A stretch of DNA of 64,000 nt from Promethearchaeota archaeon (GTDB taxonomy: Archaea > Asgardarchaeota > Hermodarchaeia > Hermodarchaeales > Hermodarchaeaceae): NCBI GenBank assembly GCA_048938385.1, contig JBHLMG010000010.1:9785-73784 (forward strand). The letters run 5' to 3'. Position numbers and translations under genes: made by a program. Positions 1,870-49,700 of this stretch are shown piece after piece. Position 1 is the first letter of the stretch. Every line of letters starts with the position of its first letter. The notes under the pieces were generated by a model, which saw only the letters and a list, made by a program, of their open reading frames with translations, searched no databases and was not told the origin of the DNA.

Positions 1870-2103
1870 TTGACCATTCTCATGATTGTGCTAGCCCTGA
1901 TTATCCCGGGCTTTCCCCTTTTCCTCTTCATTGCTCTTCCACCTCTCTTTTGCTGGGGCACCCAACAAGAAAGGGAAATGGAAAAACACCATCCTATGTT
2001 AGCTAGACCTCGTTTCTGTAGCCAATGTGGAAAACAGCTTCTCGAACCTTTAGAAAGCTATTGCCCACGCTGTGGAGCACCTACTAGTGAGCCAGAGGAC
2101 TAA
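1870..2103 (+). CDS. small membrane protein with C-terminal zinc ribbon
   Basis: One hydrophobic helix (ILMIVLALIIPGFPLFLFIALPPLF) followed by CSQC-x11-CPRC. The TTG start is uncertain because the frame is open back to 1801. Confidence 0.4.
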   Translation: MTILMIVLALIIPGFPLFLFIALPPLFCWGTQQEREMEKHHPMLARPRFCSQCGKQLLEPLESYCPRCGAPTSEPED

Positions 2104-7778: not shown

Positions 7779-10700
7779 ATGCAGCGTCGCACACTCACTT
7801 GTTTGGTATTACTCACGCTTTTTCTCTTCTCGTCGGTGAACCTCTTCACCTCGAATGTTGGTACTCCACTCCTTGGAGAACCCGCCACCGATTCTTCGGG
7901 TGGCACCCAGATCGAATCTGCGCGCTCACCTACGGCGCCTCCACCGCCAGAAGGCCCGACCTGGGACGGGAGCGAATACCTCTATCAAGGCCTTGGACAG
8001 ACCCTACCGTCCCAAGAATTTTCTTATGGACCAACTGCAATTTTAGGCGTTACCGATCTAGATTTTGGAGAAACCGCAACAGGGCAAATCGATATCCCTC
8101 AGGGATGGACTGGCTACTATCTCACTGCTTCGGTGTACAATCTGTTTGACAAAATTTCCCACATAGCAGGTAATACACGGAACGGTAATTTTGAATCAGG
8201 TACGACATCACCGAATTACTGGGTTGAAAGCAAACGCGGAATGTCGGGAGGAGGTATTGCTGGGCTGTCTTGGAATTGGGGAACAGATTGGGGAGAAACA
8301 GACAAGGGCATCAATATTTGGGCTAATACAAGTGGTTATCCATGGCAAGCCAATCTTAACCTCATAGAATATATTGGCTGGACACAAACAATCGATCTCA
8401 ACCGCATTGATCCCACCTATGCTTGGCTGTCCTTCGATGTTCGATTCTACGATGACAATGTCCATGGACGCGATGATGATGACGAGATGGCCGTCTATGC
8501 AGAAGTGGGAGGAGCCGAGCGTATTTTTGTCTGCTGGAGGTATTGCCCTAATGCCTGGAGACAAGGCTGGCAATTTTACAACATCAATTTTTCTCTTACA
8601 CCCGACGAGCTCCAATCGTGGACTTCAGACACGATTAATGTCACCTTAGGCATGACGGTGGACTTTGATTGGACGATTAACAATTATTTTGCCATGGATT
8701 TTGATAATGTTGAACTCATCGTCCGAGGAAAAGCTAGCCCGACTGCGAATGGCTTACAACTCCGACTCAACAGCTCATCCTCCTGGGTGAATCCCACCTA
8801 TGGTTCTGGAACGATCTCCTTAGCTGGCACATGGGGTCCCTATCCTTCCGACGACTATGTTGTGGCTAGCTGGACGACTGTAAGTGCCATTAGTAGAAAT
8901 GTCGACTTCAATTATACTTTGACACTTTACATTAAACGAAGCGGAACGACCGAAGCTCAAACTGGCCCCGAGGGCTCTACCTTTTTGGTTAAGCATGGAC
9001 TTAATGCGTCCTGGACGGCTTGGTTTTTCGCCGACTTTTATTCCACTTACTATACCAACTACAACTTCACGATAAAGAAGCCAGCGGGAGGAACCTGGTC
9101 CCTGAGTAGCGTTACTGATCCGAACTTGAATTCAAAGACGGCTGAGGTTCTCGCCCAAAGTAACGCTACATATTGGTGTCTCCCCGCCTCTCTGATTACC
9201 GCCTTTGGCTGGTGGAAATTCACCTTCACCTCCTTCAACCAGATCGAATCGGTATCCGGACTGCAAAGCCTCTATCGTATTAATCCTCGCTCCCCGTCTA
9301 TCCTCTCCATCACGGTGACCTTTGAGAGCGTCACTTCCGGTGAGGTTAACCTAACCATCTACAATGCACAGCACCAACATGTGTATAGTGCGCCCACAGG
9401 TACCGTTACTGGCGGAACGCATCCCTTCACTGTGGACTTCGATGATGGAGACCTGTTTCCAGCTGGGACTTACGATTTGTGTATTTCTTACGATGATAAT
9501 GTAACCTTATCGCAAGTAGGTTTCTATCGTGCCACCTTTGATATTGAACATGACTCAAGCCTTACGCCAGAAACGACCCCGCTGACTGTGGGCTATAACG
9601 ATGGTGGTTTCTTCTATCCCCGAGTCGCCTACAACGACATCGAAACTTCTGGGAGTCCATTCATTGGTAACACCTCAGGAAGCGTCACAGTTACTGGGCA
9701 AGTGAGTGGTCGACCCCTAGTTACCTTCCGTCAAGTCGGCAGCTTATATCAAGCCATTGTCCCCGACACCTATGCCCAACCTGGCGATCACAACCTCGCA
9801 GTAACTGCCGATGACCCCTTCTACGATGCAGCGCAAACAACGATTGTTCTTCGAGTGCGTAGTTCTACTACACTCTCATCACCGACTCCTGGTTACACCG
9901 CTTACTACCTTGAAACCTTCATGCTGCAAGTCTTTTATGAAGACAACAATGGCACGGGTATCTCTGGTGCAGCTAGCTGGTTTACAACTCCGGGTTGGTC
10001 GGGCACTTCGATCACTCCAGGTGGTTCTGCGGGTTGGTACAACATCCAAGCCGACTCTGACGCGGACGGGCGAATCATTGGCACCCACACGCTCACCGTG
10101 ACGGTGACGGACCCCTCAGCCTACTATCAATCACGCACTCTCCAATTTACCATCGTCGTCCGAGGTCGTAACACCCTATTGACCTCCACGACCCCCAGTT
10201 CTGTGCCCTATGGCGCCACGGCACGATTTAGCATTACTTTATCTGATTTAGATGGAGGTGCTCCGCCTAATAATAGCACGAACAAGCTTCACCTTTCCCT
10301 TTGGCGTGGGGGAGTTCGTTGGACTTCACCAGAAGCCTCCATTATCTATGGTGGGGCAAATGGGAAATGGAACATCTCTGTTGATACAGGCTTTCTTCCT
10401 GGTGTAGGAGACTACACTTTTGAGGTGCGGTTCGAGTGGTACCACATATCCAGTGATAACTCGCCCTTCTACGGAAACCGAACCGTGGATGTCACCGTGT
10501 CTGCCCGCCTTGTGGGTACCAGCATCACCTATGATCCCCCCAATCCCATCCCCATCAATGATGACGCAGACATCACCATTTACTATCAGATCGATGATCC
10601 GATTTACTTCCCCATCAGCCGAATCTTTGGGATAGTCAAAGCGGATGTTACTGTGCTCCTAAATGGGACGAACTTGGGCACTGGATTTGATTGGGACCCA

Positions 10701-13700
10701 CAACTTGACGGTTCTTATATCCTCACGATTTACTCTTCGGACCTAAATCAAGTCGCTGTTTGGGAAATTAAAATCACGATTAATAAATCGGGTGACTCTT
10801 ATCAAGGAGCCAGTCGCACCTTTCTTTTCAATGTTCGACAACGCTTAACCCAGGTCATCGTTGATCCTCCCACTTCTACACCCTATCAGCAAAATACGCC
10901 CATAACCTTTAGTTGGTTTGATCTGGATGCGGGTTCAACACCGATCGCGCTCTCGAGCGTCTACCAGGTTACGATCTCCGGATATGGGTCTCCACAAACC
11001 TTCACTAACCCTGGAACCTGGACAGTTACCCTCGTCACCAATACATGGACTCCTGGAATCTACAGTCTAAAGCTACTCATTACTGGAGATGATCCTCCGG
11101 GAATTTATAATCAGACCAAGTCGGCTGTGACCGTCCGAATTCGCATCCACTATACGGGTGTAACGGTGCAACCCCCGAATCCCACTCCTTGGGGTCGGGA
11201 CACCCTTATGACCGTACTCTGGACCGATTTAGACATCGGAGGAAATGTGCCCATTATTGAATTGGTTCAAGTTGTTGTTTCGGATGGTCCTGGTGGGGAT
11301 CAGACCTTCTTCAGCCTCTCCTTCACCTTAGATACAGATACCTGGAGTATCGGTGAATACATTCTCAATGTGACCGTGTATGCGAGAACTTCACCCTCCC
11401 GGTCATATAACGATGCCTGGGGGAGCGTGACCGTTGTTATTCGTATACATCGCGTCGAGGTTGTGGTGCCCACCCCCTCCCCTCGAGCCTGGGGACAAGA
11501 TACAGCGATGTCGGTAACCTGGAAGGACTTGGACACCAAAACCACTATTCCGGGAATTAACCTTGACAGTATCGTTGTCTCCGACGGTCCTGGCGGCGAT
11601 CAGACCTTCTTCAGCCTCTCTTTCATATTAGACACGGATGCGTGGGGTGTCGGGGAATACCTACTCAATGTGACGGTTTACCCGGATATGACGCCGCAGC
11701 TGTACGAGATTGCGAGTTATTTAGTCACCATCACGATTCGGGCCCACTATGTCAGTGTGACGGTTGATCCGCCCGCCCAAACACCGTGGGGAGCAGACAC
11801 CTCTCTCACTATTGCCTGGCGCGATGTTGACATGGATGCGCTAATTTCCGACACAGGCCTGGACAATGTCACCATCACTGGTGGGCCAGGGGGGAATCAG
11901 GTCTTCTTCACCCTCACCCCCACTTTGAGCACTAGTAGTTGGAGTGTTAACAGTTACAGCCTCACTGTTTGGGTATATGGCAACGCTTCTTATTATGTCA
12001 ACAGTGGACCCGTAACGGTAGTAATTCGCGGACACCAGACCCAAACCGTCGTTACCCCACCCCAGCAGACTCCCTTTGGCTTTGACACAGCCATCTCTGT
12101 TTCTTGGCTAGATCTCGATCTTGGCAGTATTGATGTGCCTGGAGGAAACCTACTGTCTGTTACTGTTTCGGGAGGTCCTGGTGGGGCCCAAGTGTTTGGC
12201 AGCCTGAGTTTCACCCTAGTTACCAATACTTGGAGCGTGAATACCTACATTCTCACCGTTACCGTTTCACCCTCAAATGCGAACTACCTTGGTAGCAGTT
12301 CGCAGACCACGATCATCATCCGCATTCACTACACCTCAATCACGGTCCAAACCCCCGAACCGACCCCTTGGGGGCTTAACACCCCCCTCACCGTGACCTG
12401 GACTGACCTGGACACTGGAGGACCAGTTCCCGGAGGCCAGTTACTCCAAGTGGTGGTGTCAAATTGCCCCGTCGGTGGCGATCAACCCTTTGGTAGCCTC
12501 AGCTTCACCCTCGTCACTGACACCTGGGCTCTGAGCTCTGGCTACTCGCTTATCGTCACCGTTTACGCCACTACTGGACCCCGCTCTTACAGCGACGCCA
12601 TTGGCAGCGTACTCGTGGCCATTCGCACCCACCGCGTCAATGTCGTCGTAACTGGTCCTGCACCCGTGCCTGAAGGTGGTCGTATTTTCATCAGCATCGA
12701 ATGGTCTGACATCGATACCTTAACACCAATTGGCACTGGAGTCTTAGATTATGTGATTGTCACAAAAACATCAGGTCCTCTAAACTCCCCTGGTTTACCA
12801 TATACTAACTGGACCCACCTTGAGTTCTACATCGATGCAACTGGTTGGGATACAGGTACCTTCAAGTTAAATGTCACCGTGTATTCGTCTAACCCTAACT
12901 ATGCTGATGGTTGGGGACCAGTAAACATCGTAATTCGTGTGCACTCTATTACAGCAGATGTCGATCCTATCCCCCGAGTTCCGTTTGGCAATGATATCAA
13001 CATAACGCTCCGCGTTGATGACAGTGATGATGCCATCCCACTGCCAGAAAACCATATTTCCTCTGTGGTGATCTCTGGGGGACCGTCAACTATCACCTTG
13101 GATAGTAGTAACTGGTGGATCTGGGTTGAAAACGGCACATTCGGCGTTGGCACTTATCTAATCACCTTAGATGTGTCAGGCTGGGCACTCAGTACCTATA
13201 ACCTTCAAATCAATGTGTATACCTCTTCGAGTTACGGAAATGGTGTGGTTTATACTCGACTAATAGTCCGAGCCCTCGCGATTAGCTTTACTTACCAAAG
13301 CCCACCCGTTGTTCCTTGGGGCGAAGATGGACTGCTCATCGTCACCTACATTGTGAGCGATGATGCCACGCAAGATGGTAATCCAATTGAACCGCCTGGG
13401 ATTACCATCAACATCGCCACACTAACGCAAGGTGTGCATTTTGATTGGACTTATTGGACGAACGGAAAATACAACATCACCTTTTACAGTTCGTACCTCA
13501 CATCCGTGCAGACCTACCAATTTGACATCACCATCTCTAAATCCGCTGAATATTCCACGGGCGTACTGAATGCTGTACCACTAACGGTCCGTTCGTTGTA
13601 CACCTGGTTACATCCGACAGATGTCCCAATAACCCCCTTCGGCGATCATGTCCTAATCGATGTCGAATACATCGTACTCGATGGTGAAAGCTCCCTTTTT

Positions 13701-16700
13701 GGACAACCCATCCATACTGGAAGCGAAATACTAACTATCACAGGCCTTGATGGCTTCAACCCCACCTCTGTAACCTGGCAATGGGTTGGCGCATTATCGA
13801 TCTATCGAATCAACATCAGTGCTACCGATATCACCGCCATCCAAGCTTACAAAATCATGATCAGCATTTCCGGCTCAGGCGCTGGGTATGACCCCGACAT
13901 TATTCCTTCACTCACTTTCAATGTGCGCACCGTTTTCACCGCACTAGCTGTGACGCCTGTCGACGCCCAGGCCTACCTTGACAACTTCACCATCCAGATT
14001 ACATATACGGTTAATGACCCTGACAGCTCCCGCAATGGGCGAGGCATCGATGGCCAAGCCTCTATCATTGAACTCGTCGAATACCCTGGGCTATTTACTG
14101 TGATTCCACTTGGCAATGGGATCTACAACATCATTATCAACTCAACTGGTGTAGGTGCGCCTGGTTCGTATCTCGCCACCATCACCACCGCCTGGACCCA
14201 ATCGCCACCCCCCTACGCCATCCAGACCCGACAAGTCACCCTCTTCGTAACCGAACGCCCTACCAGAATCCGAAACACCATCGGCGAGGAATATGGGTAT
14301 CTCGACGAAATCCTCATAAACTTCACCTACTCGGATCTAATACGCCTTGAATGGATCCTGAATACCTCCTATGGGGGAGGACACATCTTCATTTCGGTCT
14401 ACAACAATACTCCTGCGACTCCAGTTTTGATTCCAAACGATGCGTGGTATGTTACAGAAATCATTGGAGGAACTCATGCTTTTCAACTTCATATCCAAGC
14501 TAACTATTTCCTTAGAGTCAACACCTTCTTTGATTTCCTAGTCAATGTAACTTGGCAACCCGCAACAGCCCCCTACTTCCAATTCCGAATTTTCGAATTC
14601 CGAGCCTATGTGGTAGGTCAACGAACCAATGTGATCTTCCAACCAAGTACAGGACCTACTCCCTACTACTCGAACATCAACATCGTATTTCGATTTGTCA
14701 CTGAACAGGGTGCACCTATTAACCAAGATAGCTGGCCTTTAGTTGCTGTATCCCTTCTCTGCGAACAAGTGCCTAGCTTTGGCATTCAAGGACTAGACTG
14801 GGATTACACCTTTACAGGAAGTGGGTTTTATGAAATCTGGATCGACTCTACCCGACTCATTGGAATTGGCTCTTACACCTTCTATGTGAATGTAACCTAC
14901 CCTGGAGGGGCTGACCCCTTCTTTGAATCCCAGTACAACGAACCTGTCACACGATTAGTGCGATACATCGATACCTTGTTAACCTATATCGATCCCGGTC
15001 CCTTGTATTATGGCGATGACCTGACCCTCACGGTCCGATATTGGGATCGCGATAACGATGTCCCAGTACCAAACATCCCACCAATTAATTTCACTCTTAC
15101 TGGTGGAACCTACTCAGGACCAACTCCATTGGGAGGGGGATGGTGGGAATTTATCGTTGCCACCTCGGGAATAGGTGCTGGTGGAGAATTCACGATTTCA
15201 GTCTATGCAAATCAAAGCTATTACTATTGGCAGAGCCTATCTGTTCCAGTCTACATCTATGAAGTCCCATTACAAATCACACTCGATACTCCACCCATCA
15301 TCGATAGGTATTATGGGCAATTGGACCCTGCTTGGGTTAATGTAACCATAACAATTGGTGCGGGTTCGTTGAAAGACACTGAAGTCCTCAATGCCTTAGT
15401 TCAAGCCATATGGGATGAACCCACCCTCACTTTCATTAACAACACCGATGGAACTTATTCGTGTGACATAGGCACACTTTGGAATAAGGGTCGATACACC
15501 ATAGAAATTCGAGCATCATTACCTGGATACTACTCCAACGATTCAATTTTCATCATTTATACCATTACAGCTGGTCCAAGCATCCTCGATGTGTATGGAA
15601 GGCCAAGCACATCATTCTACTTGTATGCGGGTGACCTCTATTTTATCGCCGTCAACTTTACAACTCCAGACGGAACGCCCCTAACAGGTGCAGAAGTCAC
15701 TTGGAGTAGTGCAGATTTAACACCATCCTCCGGAGACCTTTCTGAGACTTTCCCTGGAATCTATAATGCGAGTTTCAGTTCGCTTGGTTACGGATTATTC
15801 ATCTACACAATTTCTGTCAAGGCATCCTTAGGCGGAAATGTCCAGTCGCAAACGCTCACATTCCAAATTGATGTCCGCTACACACCGGCAAAGATCCAAC
15901 CTGCAGACAACAACTATTTCATACCTGTAGAGTATTCTGAAAACTTCACCCTCATATTCTACTTCAATGACACACTGAATAACCAACCAATACCTAGCGA
16001 ACTAATCCTTGCTAGATGGGATCCACTTCCTGGGGGAAATGCAACGCTAAATCCAATGGCCGGTGGGTTCTACAACTACACATTTCCAGCTACACTGTTA
16101 GCTGGGCTCACATATCCATTATATCTTACTTACATTGGTTCGACAGCCTTTGATTGTCCTCCAACCACAATAACCATCCAAATAACACCACGCCTAACAA
16201 GCCCTGTCGACCAAGCGAATATCGTGTCCGTTCGTGAAGACTGGAATAAGACGATTAGTATTCTTCAAGTACCTGTTGGTGATTGGCTCTACATCTACCT
16301 CAATTATACTGATGCTGATGGCATACCAATTCTTTACGGAGAAGGGATCGTTACTGTTGGCGATGTCGGAGTGTCCGGAGTGTTCTATTTTGATGCGAGT
16401 AAAGGACTGTATGTGGTAACTCTCAATGCTAGTGACTTCGGTCGTGGAACTTGGTCCTTACGGGTGACAGTTTCGAGAACCAACTTCGAAAGTTCAACCT
16501 ATGCAACTAACTTCGAAGTGATTCAGATTCCCACAGCACTGACGGTCACAGAAATTGATGAAGTCCCAGTAGTGGAACCCGGAAGTGCGTACTTCTATAT
16601 TGGATCACCACTGACCATTCACCTCTTTCTAAATGACACTTGGCACAATGAAGGGGTTGAAGGCGCTACGCTTACCCTTCCCAGAACTCTAGTTGATGCA

Positions 16701-17678
16701 GGTTTTGTAATTGTACCACTAGAAGACGGTTACTATGAAATCCAAGGAACCTGGAATCTCTTTTCGCTCACAACAACTTCAATAGCTCTCACGGTTACAG
16801 CTGAGAAGACTGAACCGCTAAGGCACGAAACCGCCCAATTGTCAGGGTGGGTTCTGACATTTTCGCCCCCAGCCACTTTGCTAATAACAGTGTATGGTGG
16901 AATCGGTGCGGCGGTGATGCTCATCGTCGTCCTTATGACTTGGCTCTTATGGGTTCGTGTCTTTTCTATTCCTTGGGAAGTTCGTCGGATGCGATCGTTA
17001 GCAAAGACCGTCGAGAAGGACGAAAACTTCAAGCTAAGTAAGAAGGATCTAAAGCGCTTCCATGCCCGTGAACTTACGCTCAAGGATAAGGTCACTACAG
17101 CCATGGCTACCGTTGGGGTGGCGGCAACGCCCGCGATGATGCCGGCTATCGAAACGGTTGAAGAGGTTACAGCCACTGAGGAAGACATCATGGGAGAACT
17201 CGACAAGATTCCTGGGTTAGGCCCTGAAGAGAAAGGTGTACTCGCTGAAGAGATGCGCAAGATTCCACGCAAGGATCGAATCTGGTTCCTAGACGACCTC
17301 CGCAAGCAGATGGGCCAGCGTCGGATGGACTTTCTCACAAAACGTGAATTAGGGGAAGTGACCGAAGTACCCGAAGCAATACCACCGACGGAAGCTCCAC
17401 CAGAGGTGCCCCTGGACAAAGTGAAGGCCGCTGAACCACCACCACCTGAGAAGGCGTTAACGGAGGACCGGACCGCACCAACTGTACTACCACCGGAGTT
17501 TCAGCCACCACCGGTTGACCCCGCGGTGGAAGCGGAGATTAACCGTGAGTTAGCCAAGATTCCTGGCCTCTCGGCGCAGGAGAAAAAGGACTTACTTGAC
17601 CACCTGAAGTACCTGTCGAAAGAGGAGCGGAAGGCAACTTACATTTCGTTACGCCAGTCTGCGGACAGGGAAGACTAG
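7779..17678 (+). CDS. giant (3299 aa) type I surface protein: signal peptide, jelly-roll-like head, ~25-30 Ig-like modules, one TM helix, ~235-aa cytoplasmic tail
   Basis: Single uninterrupted ORF. N-terminal signal peptide is MQRRTLTCLVLLTLFLFSSVNLF. The body is reiterated ~100-aa beta-rich modules, each ending in (V/I)x(V/I)R, with many N-x-S/T sequons. TM helix is LLITVYGGIGAAVMLIVVLMTWLLWVRVF (nt ~16881-16967), followed by a charged tail. Confidence 0.9.
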   Translation: MQRRTLTCLVLLTLFLFSSVNLFTSNVGTPLLGEPATDSSGGTQIESARSPTAPPPPEGPTWDGSEYLYQGLGQTLPSQEFSYGPTAILGVTDLDFGETATGQIDIPQGWTGYYLTASVYNLFDKISHIAGNTRNGNFESGTTSPNYWVESKRGMSGGGIAGLSWNWGTDWGETDKGINIWANTSGYPWQANLNLIEYIGWTQTIDLNRIDPTYAWLSFDVRFYDDNVHGRDDDDEMAVYAEVGGAERIFVCWRYCPNAWRQGWQFYNINFSLTPDELQSWTSDTINVTLGMTVDFDWTINNYFAMDFDNVELIVRGKASPTANGLQLRLNSSSSWVNPTYGSGTISLAGTWGPYPSDDYVVASWTTVSAISRNVDFNYTLTLYIKRSGTTEAQTGPEGSTFLVKHGLNASWTAWFFADFYSTYYTNYNFTIKKPAGGTWSLSSVTDPNLNSKTAEVLAQSNATYWCLPASLITAFGWWKFTFTSFNQIESVSGLQSLYRINPRSPSILSITVTFESVTSGEVNLTIYNAQHQHVYSAPTGTVTGGTHPFTVDFDDGDLFPAGTYDLCISYDDNVTLSQVGFYRATFDIEHDSSLTPETTPLTVGYNDGGFFYPRVAYNDIETSGSPFIGNTSGSVTVTGQVSGRPLVTFRQVGSLYQAIVPDTYAQPGDHNLAVTADDPFYDAAQTTIVLRVRSSTTLSSPTPGYTAYYLETFMLQVFYEDNNGTGISGAASWFTTPGWSGTSITPGGSAGWYNIQADSDADGRIIGTHTLTVTVTDPSAYYQSRTLQFTIVVRGRNTLLTSTTPSSVPYGATARFSITLSDLDGGAPPNNSTNKLHLSLWRGGVRWTSPEASIIYGGANGKWNISVDTGFLPGVGDYTFEVRFEWYHISSDNSPFYGNRTVDVTVSARLVGTSITYDPPNPIPINDDADITIYYQIDDPIYFPISRIFGIVKADVTVLLNGTNLGTGFDWDPQLDGSYILTIYSSDLNQVAVWEIKITINKSGDSYQGASRTFLFNVRQRLTQVIVDPPTSTPYQQNTPITFSWFDLDAGSTPIALSSVYQVTISGYGSPQTFTNPGTWTVTLVTNTWTPGIYSLKLLITGDDPPGIYNQTKSAVTVRIRIHYTGVTVQPPNPTPWGRDTLMTVLWTDLDIGGNVPIIELVQVVVSDGPGGDQTFFSLSFTLDTDTWSIGEYILNVTVYARTSPSRSYNDAWGSVTVVIRIHRVEVVVPTPSPRAWGQDTAMSVTWKDLDTKTTIPGINLDSIVVSDGPGGDQTFFSLSFILDTDAWGVGEYLLNVTVYPDMTPQLYEIASYLVTITIRAHYVSVTVDPPAQTPWGADTSLTIAWRDVDMDALISDTGLDNVTITGGPGGNQVFFTLTPTLSTSSWSVNSYSLTVWVYGNASYYVNSGPVTVVIRGHQTQTVVTPPQQTPFGFDTAISVSWLDLDLGSIDVPGGNLLSVTVSGGPGGAQVFGSLSFTLVTNTWSVNTYILTVTVSPSNANYLGSSSQTTIIIRIHYTSITVQTPEPTPWGLNTPLTVTWTDLDTGGPVPGGQLLQVVVSNCPVGGDQPFGSLSFTLVTDTWALSSGYSLIVTVYATTGPRSYSDAIGSVLVAIRTHRVNVVVTGPAPVPEGGRIFISIEWSDIDTLTPIGTGVLDYVIVTKTSGPLNSPGLPYTNWTHLEFYIDATGWDTGTFKLNVTVYSSNPNYADGWGPVNIVIRVHSITADVDPIPRVPFGNDINITLRVDDSDDAIPLPENHISSVVISGGPSTITLDSSNWWIWVENGTFGVGTYLITLDVSGWALSTYNLQINVYTSSSYGNGVVYTRLIVRALAISFTYQSPPVVPWGEDGLLIVTYIVSDDATQDGNPIEPPGITINIATLTQGVHFDWTYWTNGKYNITFYSSYLTSVQTYQFDITISKSAEYSTGVLNAVPLTVRSLYTWLHPTDVPITPFGDHVLIDVEYIVLDGESSLFGQPIHTGSEILTITGLDGFNPTSVTWQWVGALSIYRINISATDITAIQAYKIMISISGSGAGYDPDIIPSLTFNVRTVFTALAVTPVDAQAYLDNFTIQITYTVNDPDSSRNGRGIDGQASIIELVEYPGLFTVIPLGNGIYNIIINSTGVGAPGSYLATITTAWTQSPPPYAIQTRQVTLFVTERPTRIRNTIGEEYGYLDEILINFTYSDLIRLEWILNTSYGGGHIFISVYNNTPATPVLIPNDAWYVTEIIGGTHAFQLHIQANYFLRVNTFFDFLVNVTWQPATAPYFQFRIFEFRAYVVGQRTNVIFQPSTGPTPYYSNINIVFRFVTEQGAPINQDSWPLVAVSLLCEQVPSFGIQGLDWDYTFTGSGFYEIWIDSTRLIGIGSYTFYVNVTYPGGADPFFESQYNEPVTRLVRYIDTLLTYIDPGPLYYGDDLTLTVRYWDRDNDVPVPNIPPINFTLTGGTYSGPTPLGGGWWEFIVATSGIGAGGEFTISVYANQSYYYWQSLSVPVYIYEVPLQITLDTPPIIDRYYGQLDPAWVNVTITIGAGSLKDTEVLNALVQAIWDEPTLTFINNTDGTYSCDIGTLWNKGRYTIEIRASLPGYYSNDSIFIIYTITAGPSILDVYGRPSTSFYLYAGDLYFIAVNFTTPDGTPLTGAEVTWSSADLTPSSGDLSETFPGIYNASFSSLGYGLFIYTISVKASLGGNVQSQTLTFQIDVRYTPAKIQPADNNYFIPVEYSENFTLIFYFNDTLNNQPIPSELILARWDPLPGGNATLNPMAGGFYNYTFPATLLAGLTYPLYLTYIGSTAFDCPPTTITIQITPRLTSPVDQANIVSVREDWNKTISILQVPVGDWLYIYLNYTDADGIPILYGEGIVTVGDVGVSGVFYFDASKGLYVVTLNASDFGRGTWSLRVTVSRTNFESSTYATNFEVIQIPTALTVTEIDEVPVVEPGSAYFYIGSPLTIHLFLNDTWHNEGVEGATLTLPRTLVDAGFVIVPLEDGYYEIQGTWNLFSLTTTSIALTVTAEKTEPLRHETAQLSGWVLTFSPPATLLITVYGGIGAAVMLIVVLMTWLLWVRVFSIPWEVRRMRSLAKTVEKDENFKLSKKDLKRFHARELTLKDKVTTAMATVGVAATPAMMPAIETVEEVTATEEDIMGELDKIPGLGPEEKGVLAEEMRKIPRKDRIWFLDDLRKQMGQRRMDFLTKRELGEVTEVPEAIPPTEAPPEVPLDKVKAAEPPPPEKALTEDRTAPTVLPPEFQPPPVDPAVEAEINRELAKIPGLSAQEKKDLLDHLKYLSKEERKATYISLRQSADRED
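10834..13270 (+). repeat. in-frame tandem array of ~8 units of ~300 bp (about 100-aa Ig-like modules) inside the giant gene
   Basis: Units share HY/HR-x-V-x-V-x-PP-x-PTPWG-x-DT...W-x-DLD...VVVSDGPGGDQ-x-FFSLSF-x-LDTD-x-W...Y-x-LNVTVY. A 23-nt exact match, GATCAGACCTTCTTCAGCCTCTC, occurs at 11298-11320 and 11598-11620, exactly 300 nt apart. Confidence 0.8.
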
Positions 17679-40084: not shown

Positions 40085-40621
40085 CTACTCCTGTTTTAGT
40101 TCAGAAACTAAAATCATTTCTGCGAGTTTATCGAAAACTTCGCTTACTTTGAAATCGGTCTTTGCACTGGTTTCAAAATAGGGAATGTTCTTTTCCTTCG
40201 AATAATTCTGTGCTTCCTCAATAGAAATAGTACGAGTGTCATCTAAATCAATCTTGTTCCCCACTAGCACAACTGGCACATCAAGCCCCGAATAGCGACG
40301 AATTTGATCATACCATTTCTCAGCATTGACAAAGCTTTGCCGCATGGTGATATCGAAGACTAATAATGCCCCCTTGGCTCCACGGAAATAAATCGGACGC
40401 ACACCTGAGTAGCGCTCCTGACCTGCTGTATCCCAGGCCTGAATCTTTACAATCTGGTTGTTAATCGGAATAGATTTCACGATAAAATCGACACCAAGAG
40501 TGGAAATGTACCCATCTGTGAAGGTGCCGTAAGCAAATCGTTGGGTAAGGCTAGTTTTACCAACCTCAGCGTCACCAACTAGAACGATCTTAAAAAGATA
40601 ATCGAACGCATCGTGCGGCAT
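40085..40621 (-). CDS. Rab-like small GTPase (Ras superfamily)
   Basis: G1 is GDAEVGKT, G3 is DTAGQE, G4 is GNKIDL and G5 is ETSAK. RabF-like motifs are LGVDF, KIQAW, RYSGVRP, YFRGA and LVFDIT. There is no C-terminal Cys. Confidence 0.9.
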   Translation of the reverse strand: MPHDAFDYLFKIVLVGDAEVGKTSLTQRFAYGTFTDGYISTLGVDFIVKSIPINNQIVKIQAWDTAGQERYSGVRPIYFRGAKGALLVFDITMRQSFVNAEKWYDQIRRYSGLDVPVVLVGNKIDLDDTRTISIEEAQNYSKEKNIPYFETSAKTDFKVSEVFDKLAEMILVSELKQE

Positions 40622-40740
40622 GCCCAGAACCCATACAACAGTTATTATCTATGCTTAATGCTGCAGAGGTGTCACTTAATCTTTTGGAATCTTGACAGTT
40701 TCATCAGGTTCCTTTGCAGAGTAATAAAAAGGAGAACACC

Positions 40741-41901
40741 TCATCGGGGAAAGTATTCAAAACCGCGGTAACCCTTCCGGCGTTGAAGTTTTTGCATATC
40801 GAAGAGTTTTTTGAGTTCGTTGGATGCAGTCCCCTTCGTAATGCCAACTTCCTCAGCAACGACAGCAGAGGTCACTCCATCCTTTTCCTTTGCTAAGGCG
40901 AGGATTTCACGTTGTGTCGCTGTTAATTCGTCGAATTCTTCAAACCAGTCTTCATCCTCCCCTTGGGGACTAGATTCGATAAATCGTGTCGGATCTTGTA
41001 TACTTGGAATCAGAGTAGTAACTGGTGGAGGACTAGGTTGGAGTTTTACGACTTGATGTACAAAGTCTCGAGTGATTCGATCACCGGAGGGAGTATCTTC
41101 TTGAAATGCCTGTGTAATGATGTTTTCACAAAAACGAAGGACACTCCGAGGATAACCTCGAGTATGGAGATGCATTTCATCTAAAGCCTCTTCTGTAAAG
41201 GGTGTAAGCCCCTGTCCCCCATAGAATTCGATACGTTGTCGAATGAGTTGCTCCATCTCCTTGCGGGATAACACCTCCAACCCATTCTCGCCTTCGGTTT
41301 CCAAGAAGAACTGTAAGGTAACTCGCTCTGCAAGTGGAGGAAAGATGCTCGTTAAGGCCTTGGTAAATCCAGTTAATCCAGCAATATACACCACGACTGC
41401 AGGCATGTCGCTAAGTACACGGAGCCACCGAACAGTTTTTCGCTTCTCAACCTCGACCGGCTCTGTATCCTCTTTGGTCAAGGCTAGGCTCTGACCATCA
41501 TCTATCAGTAAAATAATTCGTCGTTTACTCTGTTTATGGAACTGCCGCACCCTTTTTGCAAGATCATCGATGAGGGTAGGGACAGTATTAACCTTAAGCA
41601 TCAGCTCTTCCCGCATGAGATTCATGAGCGTGTTGCTTAAGATTGTGGAATCTAGGGGTTCAGAAACTAAACAGGGAACTAGGGCTGGAGATTCTGCAAG
41701 GTAGTCATGGAACCACCGCAAGATGTGGGTTTTCCCTGTTCCGCGACCCCCTTCAATGAGAATTATGTTACCTGTGCGGAGTTGCACCACTAAAGGATTT
41801 AGTAATCGTTTTTCAGCAGCAAAGACTTCTGGCATGACATCGATCCGAAAGGGGAAATCGGACCAACCAAGGCTTTTGAGACGTTCATCGAAAGCAAACA
41901 T
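40741..41901 (-). CDS. ExeA/AAA_22-like P-loop ATPase fused to C-terminal winged-helix domain
   Basis: Walker A is IEGGRGTGKTH and Walker B is RIILLIDDGQ. TRGYPRSVLRFCENIITQAF resembles the G.PR.IN.LC end of ExeA-type ATPases. The C-terminal wHTH is TQREILALAKEKDGVTSAVVAEEVGITKGTASNELKKL. Confidence 0.7.
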   Translation of the reverse strand: MFAFDERLKSLGWSDFPFRIDVMPEVFAAEKRLLNPLVVQLRTGNIILIEGGRGTGKTHILRWFHDYLAESPALVPCLVSEPLDSTILSNTLMNLMREELMLKVNTVPTLIDDLAKRVRQFHKQSKRRIILLIDDGQSLALTKEDTEPVEVEKRKTVRWLRVLSDMPAVVVYIAGLTGFTKALTSIFPPLAERVTLQFFLETEGENGLEVLSRKEMEQLIRQRIEFYGGQGLTPFTEEALDEMHLHTRGYPRSVLRFCENIITQAFQEDTPSGDRITRDFVHQVVKLQPSPPPVTTLIPSIQDPTRFIESSPQGEDEDWFEEFDELTATQREILALAKEKDGVTSAVVAEEVGITKGTASNELKKLFDMQKLQRRKGYRGFEYFPR

Positions 41902-41979
41902 GTTTAGTCACCGGCGATGGTGTGATTCTTGGATGCATCTCCAATTGTGTGAAAGCCACTCCTCCCAGTCTACTTCAGT

Positions 41980-42261
41980 CTACGCATCGGTAGTAATTCC
42001 GTCACCCATACGACCCAGGAAATTGTTATAGGCGAATGGACAGACGACCTCGATACCAGCGCTGGGATCGAACTCTACCTGTTCTTTGCCAATTGAGCAG
42101 AAGAAGGCACAGTATCCACCATCTACGAGTCGACCGGTCCGCTGACACACAAAGGTTCGAGCGGTGGGGGTAATTAATTCCAGAACCGCGTTGGCGTCGA
42201 GTTGTGCAATTGCTTCTTCAAGTCGGAATTTTGGTTGAAGCGCTTTGATTTTGTCACTCAC
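41980..42261 (-). CDS. hypothetical small protein with four Cys
   Basis: 93 aa. Cys residues at FVCQ, YCAFFC and VVCP. Its start overlaps the upstream ORF stop by 4 nt. Confidence 0.45.
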   Translation of the reverse strand: MSDKIKALQPKFRLEEAIAQLDANAVLELITPTARTFVCQRTGRLVDGGYCAFFCSIGKEQVEFDPSAGIEVVCPFAYNNFLGRMGDGITTDA

Positions 42262-42461
42262 GCATTCTTCACCTCGCGTTGCTGCTTCGCAAGCAGTTCA
42301 TCTTCCCGTAGTTGTGCAATTGTTCGAGCAATCCGGACACGCAGCGTAGCCGTCACCAGTGGCATCGCTTCTTGGAGCTGCTCTGCGATGCTAGGCGCTT
42401 GGAGACGACTGTTAGCATCCGGTCGAGCTCTCCCAGATGCTGTTGCTTCGTCGATTGCCAT
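42258..42461 (-). CDS. hypothetical small helical protein
   Basis: 67 aa, predicted helical and charged. 4-nt overlap with the next ORF. Candidate TATA ~55 nt upstream. Confidence 0.4.
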   Translation of the reverse strand: MAIDEATASGRARPDANSRLQAPSIAEQLQEAMPLVTATLRVRIARTIAQLREDELLAKQQREVKNA

Positions 42462-42516
42462 AGCTCATCGTCCCTCATTGAATCTCATTAACATTCATTC
42501 TTTTTCATTTTACTAC

Positions 42517-42524
42517 ATATAAAG
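42517..42524 (-). promoter_or_regulatory. candidate TATA box for the small-ORF / ATPase / GTPase transcription unit
   Basis: The minus strand reads GCTTTATATG, ~55-60 nt upstream of the ATG at 42461. Oligo-T tracts further upstream could terminate the longin-like gene transcript. Confidence 0.3.
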
Positions 42525-42790
42525 CTTCGCTTTCCCCTCTTTGCAGGTTTCAAGCGCTAAGAAAAGCCCATCATAGGGGGCACACTGAAAAAAGTTGGAC
42601 TTGAAATCAGGGCGTGTGAAATATAATTCCAAAATAAACGGTCGAGAAGGCGTTTTTTCTCAAAAAGAAAATTTAGTCGTTCATTTATGCTATCAAATGA
42701 AACGGAAAACCCCCAAAATTGTTCTAGTCTTTGGCGCGCATTCTCCCTATTCTGGAATCAAGAATAAGATCCAACAGGATAATGGCGCCG

Positions 42791-43873
42791 TTAGCGTTTT
42801 CGACGGCTGGACTCGGTAGTCGGCTGAGCCTTTTCCTCACCCTCCACCTCTGAGCTTTGCTCAGATTCCAATGTATGGGACAGTACGGATTCTTGTGCAA
42901 GAAACGCAAGGAGCCGAAATCTTTCTGAATCGAAATGGAGGAGACTTCGTAATTGCTCTAGAGTGAAGTGTTGGGCACTACGGCGAAAATCGATGAAGCT
43001 ATTTAGTTGTGCTCGGAGCGTTTCTAGTTGGAGTTCAAGGAGTTTTGCTTGAAGACGGCCATCATCACTTTGAGTAAGGGCTTGTTTGGCTAGATCCATA
43101 CTGGGTTGATGAAGGGGAGCAAGGTACACAGGAGGAGTCTTATTCAGGTTGAGAAATAGATACTGCTCTAGGTTATCTGGAGTAGTTAAGGTGCGGTAGA
43201 CTTCTTCGGTAACCCCGAGTAGGGTTGGTCGTTTGTGGGGTTGGTTTTCACGACTTTCTAGAATTCCTTTTGCAGTTTCTAATTCCGAGATTCCTGGCAT
43301 GTTGGGAACCGTGAAGGGGAGGACTTGGTCAATAGCTTCACTCAGTTGTTCGAAGGTCTTGTAATCAACACCCGTTATGATAATTGCATTACCTACAAGG
43401 ATGTTTAGAAGCAAAACATCGAGGGCATCATTAAATTTTTCGAGAATATACTCAGTTTGACTGATTCGTTTGCGTGCTACTTGCGAACGTTCGTTGTGAG
43501 CTTTCAACGCTGAGAGAATAATTGGGATGAAGGCCTGAAAGGGTTTAACATCGCCACTCCATTTCTTTAGCTGAATTTCATATTGGTTATAGAAGAGCAC
43601 ATTGAGGCTGTGAAGAACGGCTTGAACTTCGAGTTCATCAGCGTTGCCATCAGCAAGCCCAACTGTAATGAGTGGAGCTAGGACATCATAGTGGAACCGA
43701 TACTCGCCTGCACCGATGGTTCGTACCTCTTCGGCGATGGCTTCGTGTCCAAATTCTCGTATCGCAGTAAGAAGTCCGGTTAAGAGGGTTTGTTCGAGTT
43801 TGACAACTGGAGAGGTATGAGAAACTAGGGTTTCACCCGATGAGAGGAAGATGAAAACAGAATGTAGTGTCAT
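42791..43873 (-). CDS. longin/roadblock-like N-terminal domain protein with alpha/beta and helical C-terminal regions
   Basis: The N-terminus MTLHSVFIFLSSGETLVSH...LLTGLLTAIREFGHE...YRFHYDV..LITVGLADGN...VQAVLHSLNVLFYNQY has the same pattern as the 3670-5781 N-terminus. It is followed by NAIIITGVD...VLP and a helical tail. Confidence 0.6.
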   Translation of the reverse strand: MTLHSVFIFLSSGETLVSHTSPVVKLEQTLLTGLLTAIREFGHEAIAEEVRTIGAGEYRFHYDVLAPLITVGLADGNADELEVQAVLHSLNVLFYNQYEIQLKKWSGDVKPFQAFIPIILSALKAHNERSQVARKRISQTEYILEKFNDALDVLLLNILVGNAIIITGVDYKTFEQLSEAIDQVLPFTVPNMPGISELETAKGILESRENQPHKRPTLLGVTEEVYRTLTTPDNLEQYLFLNLNKTPPVYLAPLHQPSMDLAKQALTQSDDGRLQAKLLELQLETLRAQLNSFIDFRRSAQHFTLEQLRSLLHFDSERFRLLAFLAQESVLSHTLESEQSSEVEGEEKAQPTTESSRRKR

Positions 43874-44060
43874 GATCGAACGCCCTACAGCCGTAATCCT
43901 TTCAGGGGGTTTGTGCTGTTAGCGTTCGTCCTTTGGCAATTAAAGGTTTCCTCAGTAATATGAAAAATCCAGCTCTTTTGATAGAACAGTAAGCATAGTC
44001 TTAAATCCATTAAGGGTGAAAATTCTCCAAAGAGTCTTCAAAACTTTATGGTGTTAATTA

Positions 44061-47887: not shown

Positions 47888-48681
47888 GACGACTAGCTGA
47901 ACAGTATGAGTTACTAGACATTGACCCCATGCAATGGGTGAATCTGCTTTCCTTACTCCCTGAGTTAACTGCGGAAAAAGGGATTCTCTACTTATTATTC
48001 CACGGGTCAGAAATTATTCAAGCGTTCCATTCTTTGCAGGGTATTCGTCCTGATCTAACAGGTCCCTTTTCCACTCCATCGATTGTGATTCAGCAGCTCC
48101 AACAACGAGAAGAGGTAGATGCCGTCATTCTACTTGAGCAGGGACTTGCTGTTTACCTGCTTGCCAAGATGCAGGGAGCTTTCGCACCAGAAATGGATAT
48201 CATGCAGTTTTTTGAAGTCGCTCAGGAAAGTATTGAAGAGGAGAAGGGACGACGATTATTTGTTTGGCCTGATGAATTCTGGGATAAGGGAACTTTCGGA
48301 TTCTTAGGGCGAATTCACAAGCTCATAGAAGCCTTACCACTTGATTTTGTCTTAGCGTTGGCAGTTTTTGAGGAAAACCGGATCTGGGCTAGTCTTATTA
48401 TCCAGCGGTCTGAGGGACAAATCCGAAGAATCACCACCTCACAACACTTAGAATCGTTTAACCTGAACTTTGAAGACTGGCAGACGGAGTATATTATGTT
48501 CAATCAAGCAGTTACTCAACTATTTGGTCGCCCCAACCTGGGTATATTTACTGATGATGAAACGCTTCGATTTCTTATCAAAAGTGAATCTCCGTTGGAG
48601 TTTTTACGTCAAGCTTATAAAAAAGGGCAAATCATCATTGATCCGATTCCCCCTTCAATTCGTAACAGGCTTCAGCGTTAA
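47884..48681 (+). CDS. hypothetical protein, translationally coupled to the GH35-like gene
   Basis: ATGA start/stop overlap at 47884-47887. 265 aa, soluble. No family recognised. Confidence 0.55.
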   Translation: MRRLAEQYELLDIDPMQWVNLLSLLPELTAEKGILYLLFHGSEIIQAFHSLQGIRPDLTGPFSTPSIVIQQLQQREEVDAVILLEQGLAVYLLAKMQGAFAPEMDIMQFFEVAQESIEEEKGRRLFVWPDEFWDKGTFGFLGRIHKLIEALPLDFVLALAVFEENRIWASLIIQRSEGQIRRITTSQHLESFNLNFEDWQTEYIMFNQAVTQLFGRPNLGIFTDDETLRFLIKSESPLEFLRQAYKKGQIIIDPIPPSIRNRLQR

Positions 48682-49700
48682 CGGCGTCGACGAATGAACA
48701 GTCCGATTAAGATGATGATAACACAGTACATCACAACACTGAGAATTAAGAGTAGTTCGGGGGGAAGAACTAGCCAGTATCCTACAGGGGGACCACCTGG
48801 TTCAACCTGAAGGGACATGTCCTCGGGATAAGCATCATCGATCACTGGGATAGGAGCTGTGTGATTGCTCATCACGGCATAATATGGGAAAGCAGGAAAG
48901 ACCACCGAGGAAATGTACTCCCGAGTTAAGGGTGTAGCAAATGCAAAGGCTTCCTCCACCACCACTTCCCCATCATCATCGGCATCGGCTGAAGCGTTCT
49001 GAAACGCATTGGTTAAGAAGTGATTGAATACATCACCAATAATTGGAAGCCCTTCTTCGGGTAACCCCGCCCAAGAATACTCGCCCACCTGTGAGGATGC
49101 CAAGTGCACATGACCTGCAGAATCAGTTCGCACTGGATTAATCATCGCCTCTGACCCACAAGCAGATACGACCAAGACTTTTTCCTGGCTAGCTAAATTT
49201 AACCAGCCTGATGAAAACCAATTCTCCCAGTGCATTTCGTTTAGTATCCAATTTCCATGGGCAAAGATGTAAAAAAGAACAACATCATTAGCGTCCGCGT
49301 TTTGTGCGAGGAAGTGAAGTGCTGCTTCACCCACGGATTGCGTAAGCGAGTCCTGATAGATTTGAATGTGATGGGTTTGCCATCCCAGCACAAGGAGTGT
49401 TGAGATCCATTTCTGGACATCGCTGAAACCGGTGGGCAAATCGGAATTCGTGCCAGGGTAATCATCCATTTCTAAAAGGACTGCCCAACCTTCTCTGGGA
49501 TTATTTGGTAATTGACTAGTTACGATTCTTGGCAGGAGTAGAACTCCAAGCATCATGAAGAGGACGCTCAGTTGTTTTATCAAAAGTCTTCGGTGATATC
49601 TTGCCACAGAATCACATTCAATAGATACATCTTGAGGCGCTGTTATATTAATAACCCGTAAGAGGTCAGAAGAAAAAAGGGGAAACTGCACAAAAAGCAA
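48678..49700 (-). CDS. legumain-like (clan CD, C13-type) cysteine peptidase, secreted with C-terminal TM anchor
   Basis: GWAVLLE..., DVVLFYIFAHGNW (His-Gly) and KVLVVSACGSE (Ala-Cys) parallel legumain HWVVIVAGS / HVFIYFTDHG / MVFYIEACESG. The C-terminus is LLLILSVVMYCVIIILIGLFIRRRR. Start is uncertain; the GTG at 49607 gives a cleaner signal peptide. Confidence 0.55.
   Translation of the reverse strand: MLFVQFPLFSSDLLRVINITAPQDVSIECDSVARYHRRLLIKQLSVLFMMLGVLLLPRIVTSQLPNNPREGWAVLLEMDDYPGTNSDLPTGFSDVQKWISTLLVLGWQTHHIQIYQDSLTQSVGEAALHFLAQNADANDVVLFYIFAHGNWILNEMHWENWFSSGWLNLASQEKVLVVSACGSEAMINPVRTDSAGHVHLASSQVGEYSWAGLPEEGLPIIGDVFNHFLTNAFQNASADADDDGEVVVEEAFAFATPLTREYISSVVFPAFPYYAVMSNHTAPIPVIDDAYPEDMSLQVEPGGPPVGYWLVLPPELLLILSVVMYCVIIILIGLFIRRRR

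Follow-up and report, generated by a model that had tools for sequence, protein, structure and literature searches.

In this study, we analyzed a 64,000-nucleotide stretch of DNA from a Promethearchaeota archaeon (contig JBHLMG010000010.1, positions 9,785 to 73,784; hereafter "the window", whose own numbering we use), and in it a cluster of five minus-strand genes that run from position 43873 to position 40085, and which we refer to as genes A to E. Gene A (42791-43873) encodes a 360-amino-acid (aa) protein with a predicted longin-DENN fold; genes B (42258-42461; 67 aa) and C (41980-42261; 93 aa) are small open reading frames (ORFs), the product of C being a four-cysteine (Cys4) protein; gene D (40741-41901; 386 aa) encodes an AAA_22 (ExeA-like) AAA+ ATPase that ends in a MarR-type winged helix-turn-helix (wHTH) domain (residues ~324-386; 40744-40932); and gene E (40085-40621; 178 aa) encodes a Rab-like small GTPase. 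A sixth gene of related loci is referred to as gene F. All five ORFs lie where the first-pass annotation of this DNA had placed them, and every motif that it quoted (GGRGTGKTH, ILLIDDGQ, GYPRSVLRFC and NAIIITGVD...VLP) is present. The stop codon of B lies over the start codon of C, the two genes sharing exactly the 4 nt ATGA, as had also been described. The other genes are separated by spacers of 330 nt (A-B; 42462-42790, with T-rich stretches after A), 78 nt (C-D), 119 nt (D-E) and 117 nt (E to the next gene). No tRNA and no Rfam match was found within the window.

The gene A product was modeled with AlphaFold2 (AF2) from an input of 27 homologues, giving a full-length model with a predicted local distance difference test score (pLDDT) of 79.7 and a predicted template modeling score (pTM) of 0.63. 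In this model, residues ~1-103 (43565-43873) follow the order E3-10, E15-20, H28-48, E52-55, E58-65, E68-75 and H80-103 (E, strand; H, helix), i.e., beta-beta-alpha-beta-beta-beta-alpha from residue 3 and with no N-terminal helix, which is the order of a longin domain; a roadblock domain, unlike a longin domain, would begin with a helix. Foldseek matches confined to the longin part were to AP sigma/mu, Sec22b (target-normalized TM-score, TMt, 0.76-0.77), Mon1/Ccz1 and TRAPP Bet5/Trs23. The predicted fold, these matches and profile links to other Asgard longin proteins support a longin domain at this N-terminus, and bear out the longin-like pattern that had been noted there. The longin part is followed by a long helix of 38 residues, a Rossmann-like alpha/beta domain and a helical tail (residues 105-340; 42854-43561), in agreement with the alpha/beta segment and helical tail reported previously, and the last ~25 residues are disordered.

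Comparison of the full-length model with the Protein Data Bank (PDB) using Foldseek retrieved DENND10 (8p0v_M; E = 1.4e-5, 385 columns) and DENND1B from its nucleotide-exchange complex with Rab35 (3tw8_A; E = 4.6e-5, 380 columns), and C9orf72/SMCR8 was likewise matched. Since these E-values might stem from the longin part alone, we modeled residues 105-340 (236 residues) on their own (pLDDT 86.2, pTM 0.79). With this model, chains of DENN modules took ranks 1, 2, 3 and 5 (probability 0.96-1.0; query-normalized TM-score, TMq, 0.41-0.56), and included 7mge_B (C9orf72-SMCR8; E = 2.8e-4), 6ulg_L (FLCN-FNIP2; E = 4e-3), 6lt0_B (TMq 0.56) and 6v4u_B, with matches to AAA+ and Rossmann folds ranked behind them at lower probability. 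Judged from these models, the architecture of gene A appears to resemble that of a complete eukaryotic DENN module, i.e., a longin domain, an alpha/beta core and a helical C-terminal lobe, and we regard gene A, at the level of predicted fold and with moderate confidence, as a longin + DENN-like protein. The comparison of AF2 models with longin and DENN folds that the first-pass annotation had proposed therefore retrieved matches of both kinds, and its interpretation, which is partly supported, may be sharpened from "longin" to "longin-DENN".

Sequence searches gave nothing useful in this respect, and the DENN assignment is one of predicted fold. Gene A has no match in Pfam, in NCBIfam or among PDB sequences (in Pfam, none at E <= 1 for gene A and none at E <= 5 for five homologues), and the one hint of a DENN class from sequence is a "faint" precomputed match to SMCR8_C in a remote relative, P0181. 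Its homologues form 39 clusters, all from Asgard metagenome-assembled genomes (MAGs) or metagenomes, and are labeled "hypothetical" in every source. When we searched a gene A family profile against 1.84 billion representative proteins, the full-length family proved to be tiny, with only ~5 representatives, two of which are fragments, and we found >200 proteins that match through residues 3-125, i.e., through the longin domain alone. Relevant Pfam matches were present in 2 of 10 of these longin-sharing proteins that we checked, one being a longin-GTPase fusion and the other (P0046) a Fuz_longin_1 protein (30.1 bits against a cut-off of 26.1), with others showing sub-threshold matches to Longin or Clat_adaptor_s. 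Within the family, the beta1-beta2 loop of the longin domain reads F-L-x-S-G-E-T/N, with the glycine conserved and followed by glutamate in 27 of 27 aligned sequences. The only nearly invariant arginine of the longin domain, R39, is located inside helix alpha1 (residues 28-48) of the model and not in a loop. The most conserved polar cluster of the protein (S207, R208 and Q211, followed by PTLLGV) lies within the DENN-like core, and is a candidate functional surface. A further longin-type protein is encoded elsewhere in the window, by a 703-aa ORF (3670-5781, plus strand) whose N-terminal domain is homologous to the gene A longin domain (hmmsearch E = 1.7e-16) and has a weak match to Pfam Longin; it is one of a set of related Asgard proteins, ~680-700 aa in size, found in the profile search, and is next to a gene for a 483-aa protein (2100-3551) with no assigned family.

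Gene E carries the Rab-family motifs that had been attributed to it, with a match to Pfam Ras (E = 2e-58) and with its best 60 PDB sequence matches all being Rab, Ypt or Sec4 proteins. The top matches are Rab3C, Rab1A, Rab43 and Rab35 (E ~1e-46), and identity to Rab3C is 44% over 167 aa. All nucleotide-binding boxes are intact, i.e., G1 GDAEVGKT (residues 16-23), T41, G3 WDTAGQE (63-69), G4 NKID (122-125) and G5 ETSAK (150-154), and the catalytic glutamine of DTAGQ is retained. Of the five RabF-like motifs, four are recognizable (LGVDF, KIQAW, YFRGA and LVFDIT), with RabF3 being divergent (RYSGVR). No cysteine is present anywhere in gene E or in seven orthologues, so these proteins have no prenylation site and cannot be prenylated; for lack of a C-terminal cysteine, "Rab-like", and not Rab, is the right label. 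The crystallised Thor-Rab likewise has no C-terminal prenylation cysteine (PMC10933270). Gene E is the only Ras-family gene in the window, and is located 2.2 kb from gene A.

The genes between A and E encode two small proteins and an ATPase. Genes B and C are real genes, since both are conserved in related loci and are under purifying selection (median dN/dS, the ratio of nonsynonymous to synonymous substitution rates, 0.14 for B and 0.08 for C). Neither has a Pfam, NCBIfam, PADLOC or PDB sequence match. The gene B product is a small helical protein with the conserved core QAPSIEEQLKEAMPLVTATLRVRIARTIAQLRE. Gene C has four invariant cysteines (C39, C51, C55 and C74) in the pattern C-x11-C-x3-C-x18-C, which makes it a candidate metal-binding protein, and its homologues (27 clusters in a large homologue search) are confined to the same Asgard clade. 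Pfam gave no Robl_LC7 or longin match for B or C, and a roadblock or longin identity for C was rejected by hhalign, with a probability of <1% against both a Robl_LC7 protein and the gene A profile. In the most divergent clade, where B is not recognisable, its usual place is taken by a 50-aa ORF (L003, 7311-7463; L024, same position) that begins within the repeat array described below and overlaps the start of C by 4 nt; this ORF may be either a very diverged B or a replacement of it.

For gene D, Pfam and our alignment agree with the earlier description of an ExeA-like AAA_22 P-loop ATPase with a C-terminal winged helix. AAA_22 (PF13401) is matched at 32.9 bits, above the Pfam cut-off of 27, with weak HTH_24/MarR matches at residues 326-376. 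In an alignment of 17 homologues, the Walker A (GGRGTGKTH) and Walker B (ILLIDDGQ) motifs are invariant or nearly invariant, and a sensor-2-like GYPR motif, a linker rich in acidic residues and proline, and a MarR-type wHTH with high conservation are present as well. Homologues form 43 clusters at >=56% identity, with nothing further closer than E = 2.5e-4, and across the clade identity ranges from 56 to 88% under strong purifying selection. A gene D profile found only marginal matches in the PDB, to MarR, Cdc6 (E = 0.06-0.12), clamp-loader, Pch2 and NB-ARC proteins. An assignment as the XrtA/PEP-CTERM-associated ATPase (TIGR03015) was rejected, as the score of 51.4 bits (E = 1e-13) lies far below the cut-off of 324.5, and no secretion or exosortase genes are present among the neighbors of gene D. 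D has the Walker A and B motifs and the GxPR sensor-2-like motif of ExeA/GspA-type AAA_22 and Orc1/Cdc6-like proteins, and, as in these, a winged helix at the C-terminus comes after the AAA+ core, but D differs from the former in its score and in the lack of a secretion context, from the latter in its marginal similarity and in the lack of a replication context, and from both in a MarR-like wHTH and in a family confined to one Asgard clade.

We analyzed the regions upstream of each gene for conserved elements. A BRE/TATA-like element (transcription factor B recognition element plus TATA box), GGAAACCTTTAATTGCC (43935-43951, minus strand), is located ~60 nt upstream of the start codon of A, is conserved in an alignment of close relatives and is unique in the window. 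A second BRE/TATA-like box, GCGAAGCTTTATATG (42516-42530, minus strand), is located upstream of B; its core, TTTATATG, is invariant in 10 of 10 aligned loci, and the flanking GCGAAGC is invariant in 9 of these 10, differing in L005. Both are putative promoters, the second of them for B, C and D. A conserved motif, TTAAGTGAC (TTTAAGTGAC in most relatives; 40671-40679, minus strand), ~50 nt upstream of the start codon of E, is a candidate separate or internal promoter for that gene. The C-D spacer conserves only a Shine-Dalgarno-like GGTGA, which fits co-transcription of B, C and D. The cluster had been proposed to be self-contained. The separate promoter-like elements of A, B-C-D and E, and insertions between A and B in other genomes, argue against this, and the cluster would rather consist of at least three predicted promoter-bearing units (A, B-C-D and E) than of one operon.

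Between the TATA-like box and the start codon of B lie five (A/G)ATGA repeats with a 10-nt period (42465-42509, minus strand; the AATGA array). The array is found nowhere else in the window, where its 3 overlapping matches compare with 0.02 expected. Among the related loci, 17 were found to carry it, the most divergent ones included, and each of these has a single copy, always directly upstream of B or of the ORF that stands in the place of B. The array is absent upstream of A and of E, and gives no evidence that these genes are co-regulated with B-C-D through it. The 10-nt period matches the helical repeat of DNA, which suits one-sided binding by an oligomerising DNA-binding protein, and the wHTH of gene D would be the obvious candidate for such a binder. 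Alternatively, the array may have a translational role, as the repeats create overlapping 7-codon ATG...TGA mini-ORFs that end 3 nt before the start codon of B. No conserved RNA structure was found in the B leader (RNAalifold, -1.5 kcal/mol). When metagenomes were scanned for four AATGA repeats spaced at 10 nt, the scan returned at least 120 unrelated stretches, many with tandem matches, with no homologues of genes A to F among the matches listed, and is uninformative with regard to a regulon.

Genomic context was examined in 16 genome loci and a number of metagenome contigs. All contigs that extend far enough keep the order A-(B)-C-D-E, even where A is only 51% identical, with gene B being unrecognised in the most divergent group (L003/L023/L024), and genes A, C and D are confined to the same narrow Asgard clade. 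A conserved gene order had been put forward as a check on the cluster, and the order is indeed kept; however, the flanks are equally syntenic (GH35, PNPOx and M42 peptidase genes on one side and an M28 peptidase gene on the other), so that order alone is weak evidence and no proof of a functional link. The A-B spacer is an insertion hotspot: in L009 (9709-11148) a 2.7-kb insertion carries a TnpB/IS605 OrfB (Cas12f1-like TNB) element, in L010 (1194-2099) a gene for a 301-aa membrane protein is inserted, and in L015 (3030-3908, minus strand) a 292-aa gene is inserted on the opposite strand. Downstream of E, all other loci carry gene F, which encodes a helical protein of 402-436 aa with no Pfam, NCBIfam, PADLOC or PDB match and no assigned family (L003, 9636-10865; L005, 10071-11381; L009, 14217-15425; L013, 11817-13025; L016, 11845-13056; L024, 11614-12843). 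Gene F is absent from the window, where the M28 peptidase gene follows E after 117 nt instead. The names of the genomes involved vary: a record identical to gene A is labeled a hypothetical protein of "Candidatus Hodarchaeota archaeon" (an NCBI MAG), the nearest syntenic genomes (77-83% identity) are labeled Hermodarchaeota, Promethearchaeota and, in one case, Odinarchaeota, and such MAG labels are not to be relied on as they stand; the Hodarchaeota and the Hermodarchaeota/Promethearchaeota names both fall within the Asgard kingdom Promethearchaeati.

A link between the gene A family and small GTPases is best supported by two loci that lack genes B, C and D (L001 and L002). Here, a homologue of A (P0038; 44% identity) lies directly between two genes for extended Arf/Roc-type GTPases, followed by a gene for an Arf-like + Rab-like + SCP2 fusion, making a total of three small-GTPase genes. 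In this fusion (781 aa; L001 8358-10703, L002 5693-8038), an Arf/Rag-like and a Rab-like GTPase domain are joined to an SCP2 lipid-binding domain at the C-terminus; the fusion is encoded downstream of P0038, with one GTPase gene in between, and the next gene encodes a 514-aa PD-(D/E)XK protein. More distant members of the gene A family have other neighbors. P0042 (L025) has a roadblock gene 1.8 kb away and no GTPase gene, and three remote relatives (P0181, P0163 and P0157; L146-L148) have neither a roadblock nor a GTPase gene as a neighbor, so that the association with GTPase genes does not reach these more distant members.

Dozens of Rab-, Arf- and Rag-like GTPases are encoded in Asgard genomes alongside many longin and roadblock proteins, and it is hard to predict which regulator acts on which GTPase. 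DENN-domain proteins have been described in Asgard archaea by Liu et al. (bioRxiv 10.1101/2020.10.19.343400; Nature 2021), who reported folliculin-like longin + DENN proteins in Heimdallarchaeota and also predicted an operon encoding a roadblock (LAMTOR1-like) protein, a Rab-like GTPase and a DENN protein that they proposed to be a guanine nucleotide-exchange factor (GEF). In later papers, DENN domains are counted among the trafficking components of Asgard archaea, and the DENN fold is described as widespread. The locus described here shares with that operon an Asgard longin + DENN protein encoded near a Rab-like GTPase and proposed as a GEF-type regulator. It differs in that no roadblock gene was found (by Pfam for B and C, and by hhalign for C), with a 67-aa helical protein, a Cys4 protein and an AAA_22-wHTH ATPase present instead; in that DENN models do not detectably match the sequence of gene A, which is "hypothetical" everywhere; and in its separate predicted transcription units in place of one operon. 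The first-pass annotation knew of no description of this combination. The pairing of longin/DENN and Rab-like proteins had in fact already been published, and it is the association with an AAA_22-wHTH ATPase and small proteins that appears to be undescribed, as we found no paper on it among open-access papers and bioRxiv. Distinct here are a sequence-orphan longin-DENN family, the clade-specific genes B, C (Cys4), D (AAA_22-wHTH) and F, the conserved repeat array, and the lack of a roadblock gene.

Taking these observations together, we propose that gene A encodes a divergent longin-DENN regulator of small GTPases, with an architecture like that of DENND proteins, folliculin, C9orf72 and SMCR8, and that its most likely client would be the non-prenylated Rab-like GTPase E, encoded 2.2 kb downstream. 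Characterised longin-DENN modules all act on small GTPases, DENND proteins being Rab GEFs, and FLCN-FNIP and C9orf72-SMCR8 being GTPase-activating proteins (GAPs) for Rag and Arf GTPases (PMC12290439). Gene A would most likely be a nucleotide-exchange factor or a nucleotide-state-specific platform rather than a GAP of the folliculin type. Genes B, C and D would form a separate unit between A and E, driven by the conserved TATA-like promoter, in which D (or B) may bind the AATGA array and autoregulate the unit, and E would be transcribed from its own promoter-like box. Whether this proposal as a whole holds is, in our judgment, evenly balanced. The first-pass annotation had suggested a GTPase switch with a longin-type GEF or platform; of this, the longin-DENN fold and the GTPase genes around P0038 speak for a regulator of small GTPases, and action of A on E itself is what we infer. 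Its coupling of the GTPase to the ATPase-wHTH is not supported, as only adjacency and a shared narrow distribution connect the two. What B, C and D do, and whether they are coupled to E, would likewise be read from adjacency and co-distribution.

Of the known systems, the DENND1B-Rab35 complex (3TW8) and DENND10 of Commander (8P0V) are the most similar to gene A at full length: they are its top Foldseek matches, they share a longin/uDENN domain, an alpha/beta core and a helical tail in ~350 aa, and a Rab-like client would be plausible for both. The differences are a sequence identity of 14%, no Pfam uDENN, DENN or dDENN match, a client (E) that is non-prenylated, a host not known to have endomembranes, and an exchange activity of A that is putative.

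Several points weigh against our proposal. With regard to the fold, full-length TM-scores are 0.32-0.34 with a root-mean-square deviation of ~19 A, which means that the arrangement of the domains either differs or is mis-modeled, and those of the C-terminal part are 0.41-0.56; the Pfam DENN, folliculin and SMCR8 models are unmatched by gene A even at permissive E-values; and the gene A family profile found nothing among PDB sequences, including no DENN protein. With regard to the locus, A is not co-transcribed with E, as indicated by the 330-nt spacer, the separate conserved promoters and the A-B insertions in three genomes; nothing that we tested links D to E or to the AATGA array; and the remote relatives of A (L025 and L146-L148) have no GTPase gene within ~5 kb. 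The conserved gene order may simply reflect the relatedness of the genomes, and in the Asgard archaeon Ca. Prometheoarchaeum MK-D1 operons that combine a small-GTPase gene with a longin or roadblock gene are generally not seen (PMC10933270).

The rival explanation that survives best is adjacency without partnership, i.e., that A acts on other GTPases or is a non-GTPase scaffold, that B-C-D is unrelated and E independent, and that the arrangement is regional synteny only. Asgard genomes encode dozens of small GTPases from which another client could be drawn, the flanking housekeeping genes are as syntenic as the cluster, and a conserved promoter-like element of its own precedes each of A, B-C-D and E. 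It also accommodates the insertions between A and B, the remote relatives of A that have no GTPase neighbors, and the finding of Tran et al. that genome layout, as in MK-D1, rarely pairs GTPases with regulators and so rarely helps to assign them (PMC10933270). On the other hand, a homologue of A lies amid three GTPase genes in the quite different context of L001/L002, A, C and D have the same narrow distribution and are always adjacent, and the sole Ras-family gene of the 64-kb window, E, is nonetheless found 2.2 kb from A. We consider adjacency without partnership to be unlikely, although a serious competitor.

If gene A is a longin-DENN regulator, the direction in which it would act has to be weighed. 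As a GAP, it would form a longin-mediated dimer like FLCN-FNIP, C9orf72-SMCR8 or GATOR1, and stimulate GTP hydrolysis by E or by another GTPase. These complexes share the longin(-DENN) architecture with A, two GAP complexes (C9orf72/SMCR8 and FLCN-FNIP2) are the best matches of the C-terminal domain alone (TMq 0.41-0.56), and Asgard longin proteins of the FLCN/SMCR8 type have been proposed as GAPs (PMC12290439). However, a GP motif at the end of the beta1-beta2 loop is reported to be specific to GAP longins of the folliculin/SMCR8/NPRL2 type (PMC12290439), and this motif is absent from all 27 aligned sequences of the gene A family, where the loop instead reads S-G-E. No conserved loop arginine that could serve as an arginine finger is evident in the longin domain of A, with R39 lying inside helix alpha1 of the model. 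No second longin-DENN gene for a heterodimer is encoded at any locus, and the only other longin protein in the window, the 703-aa ORF product, is encoded 38 kb away, although a homodimer of A would be possible. Furthermore, E retains the catalytic glutamine of DTAGQ, the GTPase next to A is Rab-like and not Rag- or Arf-like, and the full-length matches of A are led by DENND10 and the DENND1B GEF. We favor a GEF or platform over a GAP because the GP motif is replaced by G-E, because no conserved loop arginine is evident and because no partner longin-DENN subunit is encoded nearby, and we regard a GAP as improbable.

A more far-reaching version of our proposal would have A set the nucleotide state of E, and E in turn control the head-to-tail assembly of D (perhaps with B and the Cys4 protein C) on the AATGA array. 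We consider this a long shot, though if true it would mean that a eukaryote-type small-GTPase switch had been wired to transcription, and not to membranes, in a lineage near the origin of eukaryotes. Least probable of all, and very doubtful, is that B-C-D (with or without E) is a defense or mobile-element-derived NTPase module with A as an unrelated neighbor: gene D has weak matches to mad8 (E = 3e-6), RdrA (E = 5e-5) and several nSTAND Pfam families, and AAA_22 is also the family of TniB/TnsC-type transposition ATPases, but the defense-type matches cover only the P-loop region and are far below the family cut-offs, for which reason we rejected a defense system, PADLOC has no match for A, B, C, E or F, the position in the chromosome is fixed between stable flanks with no integrase, transposase or repeat boundaries of its own, and purifying selection with 56-88% identity of D is atypical of fast-evolving defense genes.

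With a longin-DENN regulator and a Rab-like client as our preferred reading, the locus offers a concrete, compact and soluble-looking candidate pair, i.e., a 360-aa longin-DENN-fold protein and a 178-aa Rab-like GTPase, for which L001/L002 provide a second natural test case of the pairing of regulator and GTPase. Such a pair could reveal whether Rab-like GTPases were already under DENN-type regulation before eukaryotes arose. "Hypothetical", sequence-orphan Asgard proteins can conceal complete DENN modules that profile libraries miss, and the promoter array together with a clade-specific AAA+-wHTH protein is an experimentally approachable regulatory element in an uncultured lineage.

Two further genes in the window were observed during our survey. 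A 3299-aa ORF (7779-17678, plus strand), the sole Pfam signal of which is a sub-threshold Ig-like match (FlgD_ig), probably encodes a surface protein. A 340-aa protein (48678-49700, minus strand) has a borderline match to the caspase-domain family Peptidase_C14 (E = 2.8e-4; 21.1 bits against a cut-off of 21.4).

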